Sequence record: MT782071.1
Strand: one strand, 5' to 3'
DNA: 64,000 nucleotides
Source of the DNA: Escherichia phage JN02
The notes under the pieces are model-generated. The model was not told the DNA's origin. It saw only the letters and a program-made list of their open reading frames with translations, and made no database searches. The position numbers were made by a program, and so were the translations under genes. Shown here one piece after another: positions 16,543-21,034 of the stretch; position 1 is the first letter of the stretch; every line of letters starts with the position of its first letter.

Positions 16543-16631
16543 ATTATTTGGTTTGTGCCATTATATACATCAATCTCAAGTTGTGTTTTGTATGCTTTAA
16601 AAACGAAGAAAGGGGCCGAAGCCCCTTACGA

Positions 16632-18050
16632 TTATGGATATGTATAGATGATACCAGTTTCTAAAGCAGTTTTATGGATGACGTATCCATTACGTGATTC
16701 TTGAACATCAACTTCCGGATAGTCTTTCATCATCTTCTGAAGTGTGTAACGATGCAAGTAGTACTTACTATCTGGATCTTCAGTTTTCCAATCTTTACCT
16801 TCTTCAGTCATTTTTTGGATTTCATCCATAACCCACCATCCGCACCAGATGTAAGCTGAAGTACGATGTGGAAGAGGATGAACATAAGGTAGTTCACCTT
16901 CTGGTTCTGGAGCAACTTTATCGGTTACCTGAACTTGACCTTCTGCTGTAATAGTTTTGCTATCGTAATCAGTTGCAGTAATAGTTGCAGTAACTTCAAT
17001 AGTTTGACTTCCAATAGATGAGGTATCAACAGTATATACATTAGTTGACCCTTCTACAGGAGAAGAATCTTTCTTCCACGAGTAAGTAATTTGTGCTGCG
17101 TCAGGTGCGCCAGTAACATTAGCAGTAAATGTAGCCGAAGCATCTTGTTGAACATTAATAGAAGGAGGAGTCAATGTAATCTGTGGATTCATTGTCTTCT
17201 TATTAACCGTTAATGATACTTCATTCGAAGTAACTTCCTTTGCATCATAATCTGTCGCTGTTACTTGGGCTACACACTTAATTTTTTTAACTCCACTTGT
17301 AGTTGGAGTATAGCTAAATGTAGAGTTAGTTTCTCCACCAACCTGTGAATCATCTACATACCACTGATACGTAGCAGACGCTCCAACCGGTTGAGAAGCT
17401 AAGGCAGCAGTAAATTGAACTTGGGTTCCAATTACTCCGGCCGAAGGACTATTGGGAGTTACTGCCAACGTAGTTGTCTGTGTCTTTTTATTAACAGTCA
17501 GTGACACTTCATTAGAAGTAACGCTTAGTGCATCATAATCTGCCGCAGTTACTTGAGCTACACACTTGATTTTTTTAACTCCGCTTGTAGAAGGAGTGTA
17601 ATTGAATGTAGCGGAAGTTGCTTCGCCAACAGGAGAATCATCTACATACCATTGATAAGTAGCGTTTGCGCCTGATGGCTGCGAAGCTAAAGCGGCAGTA
17701 AATTGAACTTGGGTTCCAATTACTCCAGCGTCAGGGCTATTAGGAGTTACAGCTAAGGTAGTCGTTTGTGTCTTGTTTTGAACTGTGATAGTTGTAGAAG
17801 CTTCTGCTGTTTCAGCTTCAGCTTCCGGAACTGTATTTGTTGCAACTACTTTAATAGTCTTTTGACCTGCAGGTCCTTTTAGTACATAACTAAAAGTTGC
17901 TTCAGCTCCATCTTGTGGAACATCATCTACAGTCCAAGCATATGTAATAGTTCCACCTCCAGTTTCACCACTGGGAGTAGCAGTAAACTGCTTAGTCTCA
18001 TCTATAACTCCAGTAGGTGTTTTAGGAGTTATATCAACTGTAAAAGCCAT
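16632..18050 (-). CDS. hoc: highly immunogenic outer capsid protein Hoc, 4 Ig-like domains + capsid-binding C-terminus
   Basis: 472 aa; C-terminus ...PYVHPLPHRTSAYIWCGWWVMDEIQ... is Hoc-like; two 93-aa repeats plus flanking Ig-like units. Confidence 0.9.
   Translation of the reverse strand: MAFTVDITPKTPTGVIDETKQFTATPSGETGGGTITYAWTVDDVPQDGAEATFSYVLKGPAGQKTIKVVATNTVPEAEAETAEASTTITVQNKTQTTTLAVTPNSPDAGVIGTQVQFTAALASQPSGANATYQWYVDDSPVGEATSATFNYTPSTSGVKKIKCVAQVTAADYDALSVTSNEVSLTVNKKTQTTTLAVTPNSPSAGVIGTQVQFTAALASQPVGASATYQWYVDDSQVGGETNSTFSYTPTTSGVKKIKCVAQVTATDYDAKEVTSNEVSLTVNKKTMNPQITLTPPSINVQQDASATFTANVTGAPDAAQITYSWKKDSSPVEGSTNVYTVDTSSIGSQTIEVTATITATDYDSKTITAEGQVQVTDKVAPEPEGELPYVHPLPHRTSAYIWCGWWVMDEIQKMTEEGKDWKTEDPDSKYYLHRYTLQKMMKDYPEVDVQESRNGYVIHKTALETGIIYTYP
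17211..17774. repeat. tandem direct repeat, 2 x about 279 bp, inside hoc (duplicated Ig-like domain)
   Basis: Copies at about 17211-17489 and 17490-17774 are near-identical; encoded 93-aa units are about 88% identical. Confidence 0.85.
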
Positions 18051-18059
18051 AAGTTATCC

Positions 18060-18728
18060 TTATTTTAATGTTACGAAAGAAGAATTACGAGTTTCACGAA
18101 TTAGAACTGATCCATCGCGATTAATATAATAAATTAAGCTAAATAATGTTTGGTGAGCAGAAGCATGCACAAAACTAGTTGGGCGAGATTTCCAATCTGG
18201 GGTTTCGGCTATCCATTGATAAATCCACCAAGGAACAGTAACATATCCTGGGCCTTTGCCTAATTTAATGAGTGTAGGACTAAAATTTTCAGGCAGAACA
18301 AATTTTACTTCTTTATTTACCTCTGCCTCAGGCTCTTTTTCAGATTCAACAACCTGAGTAATTGCTTCTTCGAATTTATCATGGTCGAATTCTTTTTCTT
18401 GTTCGACAACTTCTAATACTTCAACTTGTTCTGTTGGAGAATCAAACAACAGAATAGCTTCTTCTTTAACTTCTTCGTTGGTGAAATTAACACCGTCTAC
18501 ATCATCTGCGGCAGTAATTAAATCAGTGATAGATAATCCATCAGTTTCAGGTAATGGTTCATCAGCCAGTGCGTTAAGAGCTTCTTCGATATCAATAACA
18601 ATATTATCGAATGATTTTGATTTCTTAACACTAATGCCAAATTGTTCCGCATATTCAAACAGTTTAGCTTTGGCTTCCTTTTTATCAGAAAGAGCACGTA
18701 ACTCTTCAATATAGTCTTTATCGATCAT
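18060..18728 (-). CDS. inh: acidic protein in the position of T4 Inh (inhibitor of prohead protease)
   Basis: 222 aa (T4 Inh about 226 aa); sits between hoc and uvsW; call is by position and size only. Confidence 0.5.
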   Translation of the reverse strand: MIDKDYIEELRALSDKKEAKAKLFEYAEQFGISVKKSKSFDNIVIDIEEALNALADEPLPETDGLSITDLITAADDVDGVNFTNEEVKEEAILLFDSPTEQVEVLEVVEQEKEFDHDKFEEAITQVVESEKEPEAEVNKEVKFVLPENFSPTLIKLGKGPGYVTVPWWIYQWIAETPDWKSRPTSFVHASAHQTLFSLIYYINRDGSVLIRETRNSSFVTLK

Positions 18729-18741
18729 GATATTTCCTCAT

Positions 18742-18749
18742 TATAAATA
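18742..18749 (+). promoter_or_regulatory. late promoter TATAAATA upstream of uvsW
   Basis: Exact TATAAATA about 30 nt before the uvsW ATG; uvsW is a late gene in T4. Confidence 0.5.
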
Positions 18750-18778
18750 TAATTATATTTATTACATGGTAATTTGAC

Positions 18779-20293
18779 ATGACTGACATTAAAGTACACT
18801 TTTATGATTTTAGTCACGTGCGCATTGAATGCGACGAAAGTACGTTTTACGAACTTCGTGACTTTTTTAGCTTTGAAGCTGACGGGTATAAATTTAACCC
18901 AAAATATCGCTATGGGCAATGGGATGGTAGAATTCGACTTTTAGATTACAACCGTTTGTTACCATATGGACTTGTAGGACAAATAAAAAAGTTCTGTAAC
19001 AATATGAGTTATTCTGTATGGATTGATCCTAAAATCTTTGAGACCGAAGACCTTACCAGGGAAGATTTTGACGCATGGCTTTCTAAACAAGAAATTTATT
19101 CGGGCAACTCCAAAATCGAACCACATTGGTATCAAAAAGATGCGGTATATGAAGGTCTAGTTAATCGTCGTCGAATTTTAAACCTTCCGACATCAGCAGG
19201 TAAATCACTAATCCAAGCACTTTTAGCTCGATACTATCTAGAGAACTATGAAGGTAAAATTCTCATTATCGTCCCTACAACAGCATTGACAACCCAGATG
19301 GCTAATGATTTTGTTGATTATCGCTTGTTTAGTCATTCGATGATTAAGAAAATTGGCGGTGGTGCTGATAAAGCAGACAGAGCTAAAAACGACGCTCCAA
19401 TTATTGTTGGCACATGGCAAACGGTAGTTAAGCAGCCTAAAGAATGGTTCTCTCAGTTCGGTATGATGATGAACGATGAATGCCACTTAGCAACAGGCAA
19501 AAGTATTTCTTCAATCATCTCAGGATTAAATAATTGCATGTTTAAATTCGGTTTATCTGGCTCATTAAGAGACGGAAAAGCCAATGTAATGCAGTACGTA
19601 GGTATGTTCGGCGAAATCTTCCGTCCTGTTAGCACGTCTAAATTAATGGAAGACGGACAGGTAACTGAGCTTAAGATTAATAGTATTTTCCTTCGTTATC
19701 CGGACGAATTCACCGTTAAATTAAAAGGTAAAACATACCAAGAAGAAGTTAAAATTATTACCGGACTAAAACGACGTACAAAGTGGATTGCTCAACTTTC
19801 AGTCAAATTGGCTAAGAAAGACGAGAACGCCTTTGTAATGTTTAAACACGTTACACACGGTAAAGAAATATTTGAAGCTATTAAAGAGCTTGGATACGAA
19901 AAAGTTTATTACGTATCAGGTGAAGTTGATACTGAAACACGTAACGCGCTTAAAGTCATGGCAGAAAATGGTAAAGGCATTATTATTGTCGCATCATATG
20001 GAGTATTCTCTACTGGTATTTCAGTCAAGAATCTTCATCATGTTATTTTCGCCCATGGTGTTAAATCAAAAATTATCGTACTTCAAACCGTAGGTCGAGT
20101 GCTTCGTAAGCATGGTTCTAAAGCTGTTGCTACAGTTTGGGATCTCATCGATGACGCAGGTGTAAAACCTAAATCATTAAATACTAAAAAGAAGTATACT
20201 CATCTTAATTACTTGTTAAAACACGGTATTGATCGTATCCAACGTTACGCTGATGAGAAATTTAACTATGTAATGAAAACAATTAATTTATAA
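18779..20293 (+). CDS. uvsW: UvsW RNA-DNA / DNA helicase
   Basis: 504 aa; N-terminus MTDIKVHFYDFSHVRIECDESTFYELRDFFSFEADGYKFNP matches T4 UvsW; DECH helicase motif. Confidence 0.95.
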   Translation: MTDIKVHFYDFSHVRIECDESTFYELRDFFSFEADGYKFNPKYRYGQWDGRIRLLDYNRLLPYGLVGQIKKFCNNMSYSVWIDPKIFETEDLTREDFDAWLSKQEIYSGNSKIEPHWYQKDAVYEGLVNRRRILNLPTSAGKSLIQALLARYYLENYEGKILIIVPTTALTTQMANDFVDYRLFSHSMIKKIGGGADKADRAKNDAPIIVGTWQTVVKQPKEWFSQFGMMMNDECHLATGKSISSIISGLNNCMFKFGLSGSLRDGKANVMQYVGMFGEIFRPVSTSKLMEDGQVTELKINSIFLRYPDEFTVKLKGKTYQEEVKIITGLKRRTKWIAQLSVKLAKKDENAFVMFKHVTHGKEIFEAIKELGYEKVYYVSGEVDTETRNALKVMAENGKGIIIVASYGVFSTGISVKNLHHVIFAHGVKSKIIVLQTVGRVLRKHGSKAVATVWDLIDDAGVKPKSLNTKKKYTHLNYLLKHGIDRIQRYADEKFNYVMKTINL

Positions 20294-20318
20294 GGGCTTC
20301 GGCCCTTAGGAGATAAAA

Positions 20319-20552
20319 ATGGTACTTGAATTTAAACAATTTTTATACGAAGCATCTATTGACGAATTCATGGGTAAAATTGCTAGTTGTCATACCTTAG
20401 AAGGGCTTGAAGAGTTGGAAGCTTATTATAAGAAACGTATAAAAGAAACGGAATTAAAAGATACAGATGATATTTCTGTCAGGGATGCCTTAGCAGGTAA
20501 GCGTGCCGAACTTGAAGGCGACGATGATGAGGATGAGGAAGAAGACTTCTAA
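20319..20552 (+). CDS. uvsW.1: UvsW.1 (small acidic protein)
   Basis: 77 aa with acidic tail DDDEDEEEDF; directly downstream of uvsW. Confidence 0.8.
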   Translation: MVLEFKQFLYEASIDEFMGKIASCHTLEGLEELEAYYKKRIKETELKDTDDISVRDALAGKRAELEGDDDEDEEEDF

Positions 20553-20555
20553 TTA

Positions 20556-20590
20556 AAAAAAGGCCCGACCTTTTTGGAAGGGCCAAAACC
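20556..20590 (+). terminator. putative terminator stem-loop after uvsW.1
   Basis: A-run, GGCCC...GGGCC inverted repeat around a T-rich loop. Confidence 0.4.
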
Positions 20591-20609
20591 ATAGGCAAAA
20601 AAGGTAACA

Positions 20610-20777
20610 CTATAGTAAAAGTTGGGTTTCGTTCAATTGCTCTTCTGAACTTTCTGAAACCGGCATTTGTTGGACATAATTATAACAAGGCCCAGGATGT
20701 GCGGGACCTTTGTCTGTTTCAACAACCAATGCAGAATCGATTGGAGTTTTACAGACAACACAAATCTTATCTGACAT
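20610..20777 (-). CDS. small Cys-containing protein (55 aa), in the position of T4 uvsY.-2; not in the ORF track
   Basis: ATG preceded by AGGAGG; translation MSDKICVVCKTPIDSALVVETDKGPAHPGPCYNYVQQMPVSESSEEQLNETQLLL; below the track's 60-aa cutoff. Confidence 0.45.
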   Translation of the reverse strand: MSDKICVVCKTPIDSALVVETDKGPAHPGPCYNYVQQMPVSESSEEQLNETQLLL

Positions 20778-20809
20778 GATTGCCTCCTAAGTTGAAATTA
20801 CATATCTAT

Positions 20810-21034
20810 TTATACCACTCGCATGCACATATCGATACCCATATCTTTTGTATAAAAATACTCGTCGATGTATCCAGCAAACTTCCCTTTAATATAAAGG
20901 ACGTCTTCGCCACAAGGATGGTCTGCCAGAATACGAATGTCCTGGCGACGTAGACGATACTTTTCCATTAAGAATTTAATTTCGGTTTCAAATTCTTCAT
21001 CATTATTAAAGGCATCTTCAATTGAATAACGCAT
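20810..21034 (-). CDS. hypothetical protein (74 aa), in the position of T4 uvsY.-1
   Basis: ORF directly downstream of uvsY on the same strand. Confidence 0.5.
   Translation of the reverse strand: MRYSIEDAFNNDEEFETEIKFLMEKYRLRRQDIRILADHPCGEDVLYIKGKFAGYIDEYFYTKDMGIDMCMRVV

Follow-up and report, generated by a model that had tools for sequence, protein, structure and literature searches.

How did the Hoc protein of Escherichia phage JN02 come to carry one more domain than that of phage T4, and is the event recent? T4-type Hoc is a non-essential capsid decoration protein, one copy of which is located at the centre of each gp23* hexamer. A sequence-only reading of the JN02 DNA had described its hoc gene as lengthened by a recent tandem duplication of an Ig-like domain. 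We analyzed the 64,000-nucleotide stretch of sequence record MT782071.1 that contains the gene (hereafter, the window) and compared the gene with its counterparts in related phages.

Identification and genomic context of hoc

The gene is a single ORF encoding 472 aa followed by a stop codon; T4 Hoc (highly immunogenic outer capsid protein) has 376 aa. PHROG 1149 ("Hoc-like head decoration") matched the ORF with an E value of 1.6e-141, and a phmmer search against the PDB gave T4 Hoc (5vf3_Z, 376 aa, from the capsid cryo-EM entries) as a full-length homologue with an E value of 9e-236. The latter match was split into query residues 1–135 and 189–472, which bracket the extra segment of the window Hoc. 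Two small 24.3/24.2-like ORFs and an RNA ligase gene (rnlB) were found downstream. The position of the gene between inh and 24.3/24.2/rnlB is the T4-type order, and the neighbors are annotated likewise in NHEP10, moskry, and JS09. On the basis of homology and synteny, we assigned the ORF to hoc, in agreement with the identity and the lengths (472 against 376 aa) given by the earlier reading. The window was 98–98.8% identical over 22 kb to the JS09-like Mosigvirus genomes Ec3-ASingh, NHEP10, TU01, JS09, and moskry, and we assigned it to this group by nucleotide identity. The coordinates of the features are summarized in Table 1.

Table 1. Features of the hoc locus in the window.
Feature	Position	Strand	Remarks
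Intrinsic-terminator-like hairpin and T-run	16600–16627	−	Directly 3' of hoc: AAGGGGCTTCGGCCCCTT then TCTTCGTTTT
hoc CDS	16632–18050	−	Order D1, unit 1 (alpha), unit 2 (beta), D3, C-terminal capsid-binding domain
C-terminal capsid-binding domain	16635–16904	−	Residues 383–472; phrog_21694 on 408–472, E 2.2e-41
Ig-like D3	16905–17192	−	Residues 287–382; Pfam Ig_3 and I-set at 289–373
Repeat unit 2 (beta)	17193–17480	−	Residues 191–286; orthologue of the single D2 of T4; aligns from T4 Hoc residue 93 on
Second SLT copy (unit 2)	17208–17216	−	S279-L280-T281; SLT motif
Partner tract in unit 2	17407–17438	−	Probable gene conversion
Exact 288-nt stretch missing from JS09	17463–17750	−	Closest one-unit allele; global alignment
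Repeat unit 1 (alpha)	17481–17768	−	Residues 95–190; extra domain relative to T4; Pfam PKD best stretch 99–158
SLT motif, last strand of unit 1	17496–17504	−	S183-L184-T185
32-nt tract in unit 1	17695–17726	−	Unit positions 43–74; identical to unit 2 tract; probable gene conversion
Ig-like D1	17769–18050	−	Residues 1–94, with E29 and G33; AF2 beta-sandwich, pLDDT about 82–93
inh-like ORF	18060–18728	−	Neighbor of hoc
uvsW	18779–20293	+	Beyond inh

A search of 18051–20806 for a minus-strand T4 late promoter (TATAAATA) immediately upstream of hoc or inh found none, and the nearest minus-strand copy upstream of the two genes was at 20807–20814. A scan for sigma-70-type promoters gave results no better than those for shuffled sequence, and the hoc promoter was not located. 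Across the whole window, TATAAATA occurred 18 times against 7.1 expected, a number reached in 0 of 100 shuffles; most were + strand copies at 5.2–18.7 kb, in keeping with a late structural-gene region. Two + strand ORFs inside hoc (16701–16859 and 17913–18068) run antisense to this conserved gene and were taken as chance ORFs.

Size and similarity of the repeat units

Self-comparison of the gene confirmed that a duplication is present. TRF reported a repeat at 17193–17774 with a period of 288, 2.0 copies, 80% matches, no indels, and a score of 763, and a separate repeat search gave the two units listed in Table 1 with 80% identity. The best self-offset of the protein was 96 residues, with 112 matches versus 22–58 at the neighboring offsets tested. 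These results indicate that hoc contains a tandem repeat far beyond chance, with an in-frame unit of 288 nt (96 aa). Two adjacent copies of an Ig-like domain had been proposed and were found by TRF, the repeat search, Pfam, and AF2, but the proposed unit of 279 nt (93 aa) was too short and the proposed borders (17211–17489 and 17490–17774) were off by up to 18 nt. Two weaker families of short repeats, one with 4 copies and the other with 3, were spaced at 282–288 nt across the Ig-like domains; they reflect the descent of D1, the D2 units, and D3 from a common source at a much earlier time.

The two units were identical at 230 of 288 nucleotides (79.9%) and at 83 of 96 residues (86.5%), and the longest exact run common to both was 32 nt. 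The protein identity of about 88% given previously was therefore close to the measured value, whereas the descriptions of the DNA copies as near-identical and as long perfect repeats did not hold.

Domain organization

Pfam PKD matched the window Hoc with 44.8 bits (cut-off, 23.5) in two stretches located in the repeat units, and Ig_3, Ig_2, and I-set all matched D3 above their cut-offs. The AF2 model, which was built on a 40-sequence alignment, had a mean pLDDT of 83.9, with blocks of 80–96 up to residue 380. It contained four beta-sandwich domains, and both repeat units had the same strand pattern. In unit 1, the pLDDT was 80 in one 10-residue block and 90–96 elsewhere. In D3, the beta strands extended to residue 376 and the pLDDT was 80–94 to residue 380; residues 381–382 were in a low-confidence segment. 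In regards to the C-terminal domain, nearly every column (residues 382–472) was invariant among the 40 aligned Hoc proteins, and the AF2 confidence was low (pLDDT 34–65).

The best PDB fold matches in Foldseek were four-Ig-domain fragments (Dscam1, Sidekick-2, and ICAM-5 D1–D4), together with bacterial adhesins. The whole-model TM-scores were low (0.17–0.31), because the domain orientation in a beads-on-a-string model is arbitrary, and they support the fold class only. Domain prediction and structure modelling thus agreed on Ig/PKD-like domains in four beta-sandwiches, and the extra 96 aa relative to T4 are supported as one additional Ig/PKD-like domain in tandem with its paralogue.

Age of the alpha/beta split

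We calculated synonymous and non-synonymous divergence by the Nei-Gojobori method. Between units 1 and 2 of the window, dS was 0.88 and dN was 0.10 (dN/dS 0.12), with 31 synonymous and 13 non-synonymous differing codons; the synonymous divergence is near saturation. The corresponding pair of paralogues in eight other two- to four-unit phages gave dS values of 0.86–1.49. Across 16 phages, the flanking D1, D3, and C-terminal domain gave mean dS values of 0.22–0.27 with a maximum of 0.55. The low dN/dS indicates that both units have been maintained by purifying selection.

Unit 1 of the window was 85–92% identical in nucleotide sequence to the first units of other phages (dS 0.20–0.50), versus 80% to its own partner. 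The values were 89–92% (dS 0.20–0.35) for the first units of moskry, teqskov, mobillu, teqsoen, YUEEL01, and UGKSEcP1, and the nearest relatives were those of moskry, teqskov, and mobillu (90.6–92%, dS 0.20–0.24). In regards to unit 2, the identities were 96.9% to unit 2 of moskry (dS 0.10), 96.5% to the sole unit of mogra (dS 0.09), 95.8% to that of JS09 (dS 0.16), and 90.6% to that of T4 (D2; dS 0.27). For 30 of the 31 two-unit Hoc proteins, both units were nearer to the same-position units elsewhere than to each other. Because each unit is closer to the same-position units of other phages, the alpha/beta split predates the spread of these alleles and their diversification.

The reading first proposed, in which the D2 Ig-like domain was recently duplicated in tandem in the lineage of the window phage, is consistent with two adjacent units of equal length in frame, and the window had the highest unit-unit protein identity among the 31 two-unit Hoc proteins (86.5% against a median of 79%). 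However, young copies would be nearly identical, also at synonymous sites, and each other's closest relatives, whereas 58 of the 288 nucleotides differed at near-saturated dS and each unit had closer orthologues elsewhere. The architecture was also found in many independent genomes of two genera and in about a third of the related phages, and the slightly raised unit identity is explained by a 32-nt conversion tract (see below). We consider a recent duplication very unlikely.

Prevalence and length forms of Hoc

A megablast search with the hoc gene of the window gave 656 matching phage records, from which an even-step sample (n = 60) was taken. The two-unit form (1416–1425 bp; 1419 bp in the window) was present in 19 of the 60 sampled records and the one-unit form (roughly 1131 bp) in 33, while 2 records had longer forms and 6 were partial or distant. 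Among the best 120 protein clusters, 80 were of 376 aa and 1 of 377 aa, 29 were of 472 aa and 1 of 468 aa, and 7 were of 568 aa with one each of 567 and 570 aa. At least 17 distinct GenBank phage genomes encoded a Hoc that was ≥84% identical over its full length to a three-unit Hoc. Ranking just below these matches was the 664-aa Hoc of Escherichia phage slur03 (L032, 10–2004), which has four diverged 96-aa D2-type units and six Ig-like domains and is the longest form seen here. The IMG/VR loci included four close hoc genes, and the DNA comparisons therefore used the GenBank phage records.

One- and two-unit forms were found within the same genera. Tequatrovirus included one-unit T4 and teqdroes versus two-unit teqskov, teqsoen, and CAM-21, and Mosigvirus included one-unit JS09 and mogra versus two-unit moskry and mobillu. 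Both forms occurred among the roughly 98%-identical relatives of the window (22 kb), and the GenBank record of moskry already has a repeat_region annotated inside hoc. The comparison across T4-like phages thus confirmed the length difference and placed it in a series of 376-, 472-, 568-, and 664-aa classes. These results indicate that the 472-aa Hoc is a common and already deposited allele, a real and ordinary feature.

An expansion of the repeat by the assembler was also considered, since the sequence-only reading had warned of assembly error. Tandem repeats can be mis-assembled, and some related records, such as that of NHEP10, contain hoc frameshifts. However, the copies differ at 20% of positions and have no exact run longer than 32 nt, so that ordinary reads can distinguish them; the reading frame is intact, the selection on both units is purifying, and the two-unit gene is present in many independently sequenced phages. 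The probability that the repeat is an assembly artefact is negligible.

A distant clade of Hoc on IMG/VR contigs (L006–L012, about 48% identity) had proteins of 282, 377, and 471–472 aa, in which a D3-type domain was doubled or D2 was missing. The number of domains therefore changed independently in this clade, at a different position, and domain-number variation in Hoc is a family-wide trait with independent origins.

We also examined a scheme of four unit types (alpha, beta, delta, and gamma) in which every architecture would be an ordered subset of alpha-beta-delta-gamma. With a signature taken from the central motif, this pattern was followed by all those multi-unit proteins in which no unit type was unclassified or repeated. 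Classification of whole units by the nearest reference had small margins and gave 9 delta-beta and 1 beta-beta architectures, against the ordered subset. The pattern was not relied on because the units are mosaic.

Several individual records were recorded in the course of the survey. Escherichia phage T4_ev151 (LR597660.1) encodes a three-unit Hoc of the 568-aa type that is 93% identical to that of UGKSEcP1, versus 376 aa in T4, which suggests that its hoc region was acquired by recombination with another phage. The hoc match in vB_EcoM-RPN187 (OL770074.2) spans only 852 bp in three pieces, and this phage may have a shorter Hoc without a domain, like the PNJ-9 type (PMC11853027). Many database entries for Hoc bear bacterial names, such as "PKD domain-containing protein [Escherichia coli]" and "endonuclease [Shigella sonnei]" (P0009, P0014, P0021, P0036, and others); because these entries lie on contigs of 130–170 kb, they are phage genomes inside bacterial assemblies and the names are misleading.

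Recombination between the units

We aligned the hoc gene of the window globally with that of JS09 (L027, 301–1431). The alignment contained one 288-nt gap (CDS 301–588) and 17 substitutions in the other 1131 nt, corresponding to 98.5% identity outside the indel, with D1 and D3 being 99.3% and 99.0% identical, respectively. The sole unit of JS09 had five alpha-specific synonymous bases (unit positions 3, 6, 12, 15, and 18) and was beta at every later diagnostic site, being alpha-like over positions 1–18 and beta-like from 27. An unequal crossover between the two units of a gene like that of the window would leave this pattern. Because an alpha-head/beta-body chimera fits such a crossover, we favor the loss of a unit in JS09 over a gain in the window lineage as the likely direction, on the basis of the five-site signature. 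The comparison shows that copy number at hoc still changes between very close relatives, by unit-precise recombination.

The 32-nt run shared by the two units is a probable short intragenic gene conversion. Other alpha units differ from beta at unit positions 51, 57–61, and 64, at which unit 1 of the window reads beta-like. The tract contains a window-specific change of CCA to CAA (Pro to Gln) in both units, and the CAA codon is present in neither unit of NHEP10, the nearest relative. This tract accounts for the highest unit-unit identity among the 31 proteins.

Both units of the window also contain an A7 run (GTT AAA AAA AT; 17570–17576 and 17282–17288, minus strand), which in most other phages compared is broken by AAA AGA (Lys-Arg) in at least one unit. 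In NHEP10 (L001, 3001–4420), the unit-2 run is longer by one A, and the record gives hoc as two overlapping CDSs. Several further two-unit records span 1418 or 1420 bp or have a split annotation (172859UKE1, SHFML-11, UFV09, and FriedrichMiescher, the latter with "Hoc part 1/part 2"). These differences could be homopolymer sequencing errors or real slippage.

Recombination could also have built the two-unit gene. Alpha and beta might be divergent D2 alleles of different phage lineages that unequal recombination during co-infection brought together in tandem, after which the two-unit state spread by recombination; in principle, the duplication event could then be younger than the alpha/beta divergence. 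One-unit Hoc proteins with alpha only (teqdroes and IMGVR L005) and with beta only (T4 and mogra) exist, the hoc alleles are mosaic with tail motifs that assort independently of the central signature, and both forms are found in both Tequatrovirus and Mosigvirus. However, the D1, D3, and C-terminal flanks of alpha-only versus beta-only phages gave dS values of 0.06–0.39, far below the values of about 0.9–1.5 between alpha and beta. The two unit types therefore have not simply diverged in step with the remainder of the gene, a signal that recombination could have erased. Deletion from a two-unit gene, of the kind that the JS09 chimera suggests, accounts equally well for the alpha-only and beta-only genes. 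We regard the joining of divergent alleles as improbable, if less so than a recent duplication.

Discussion

The best explanation, which we hold with high confidence, is that the window gene is the two-unit (472-aa) hoc allele of a JS09-like Mosigvirus, in which the extra unit 1 (alpha) is an old paralogue of D2 and not a fresh copy, and that the copy number of the unit is polymorphic between 1 and 4 among closely related phages via recombination. By homology with T4 Hoc, the protein would be anchored by its invariant C-terminal domain at the centre of the major-capsid-protein hexamers and would project a string of four Ig/PKD-like domains, versus three in T4. Homologous recombination between the diverged repeats adds and removes units and makes them partly alike: JS09 hoc looks like a window-type gene that lost exactly one unit, with the crossover near the start of the units, and in the window the 32-nt tract has probably been copied between the two units. 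The predicted consequence is a Hoc fibre about one Ig domain longer on which the D2 surface, SLT motif included, occurs twice, and the longer fibre and doubled surface may alter its reach or glycan avidity.

The residues reported for binding to MUC2 and fucose were present in the window Hoc (E29, G33, and SLT at 183–185), and the SLT motif was found in 166 of the 167 units surveyed. Binding to mucin and fucose has been attributed to Hoc's Ig-like domains (PMC11853027; PMC13435897). In PNJ-9 Hoc, mutation of S183, L184, or T185 in D2 abolished MUC2 binding (PMC11853027). In PNJ-6 Hoc, E29 and G33 in D1 were needed for MUC2 binding and the isolated D2 did not bind MUC2 (PMC11150434). Because of this last result, a gain in adhesion from the second D2 is uncertain.

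A broader and rather doubtful reading is that the D2 module acts as a cassette of variable length (1–4 diverged units), driven by recombination, whose copy number switches even within species-level lineages, and that the switching tunes how far the capsid fibre reaches and its avidity for glycans. If this reading were true, the window allele would capture the process in action, with its gene-conversion tract and the A7 runs in both units. If adherence to mucus or cell surfaces measurably depended on copy number, hoc would provide phages with a natural length polymorphism on which selection for retention in the gut could act.

These results correct the earlier picture of the repeat, which is old and under purifying selection and is neither an assembly problem nor a fresh duplication. 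Natural Hoc fibres, in which the Ig-like domains number 3, 4, 5, or 6, are a ready series for testing the effects of fibre length and of a doubled D2 on adherence, and the series is relevant to the engineering of T4-like phages for display or mucosal retention.

Comparison with known Hoc proteins

T4 Hoc binds the capsid through its C-terminal domain and its Ig-like string projects outward (PMC9958956). T4 Hoc (376 aa; PDB 5VF3 chain Z) shares with the window the order inh, hoc, 24.3, 24.2, rnlB, and its D2 is orthologous to unit 2. In the window gene, an additional alpha 96-aa unit follows D1 and precedes the D2 orthologue, so that the Ig-like domains are four in number versus three.

Among the two-unit proteins, the Hoc of NHEP10, Ec3-ASingh, vB_Eco_F31, moskry, mobillu, teqskov, and CAM-21 has the same 1419-bp gene and alpha-beta layout with 89–97.5% nucleotide identity. 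The window allele is identical to none of them (best, 97.5%) and has its private Pro to Gln change in both units. JS09 Hoc (376 aa) is without exactly one 288-nt unit, and its sole unit is the alpha-head/beta-body chimera. The three-unit (568 aa; UGKSEcP1, YUEEL01, and EC101) and four-unit (664 aa; slur03) proteins use the same 96-aa module with an alpha first unit, and differ from the window Hoc by one or two further diverged units with "delta" and "gamma" signatures.

The number of Hoc domains is known to vary among T4-like phages (PMC11150434; PMC13435897), so that both this variation and the two-unit allele had already been published or deposited. The domain-number variants described previously (PMC11853027; PMC13435897) are built on the same scaffold as the window Hoc, and the domain that they lost or gained differs from that of the window.
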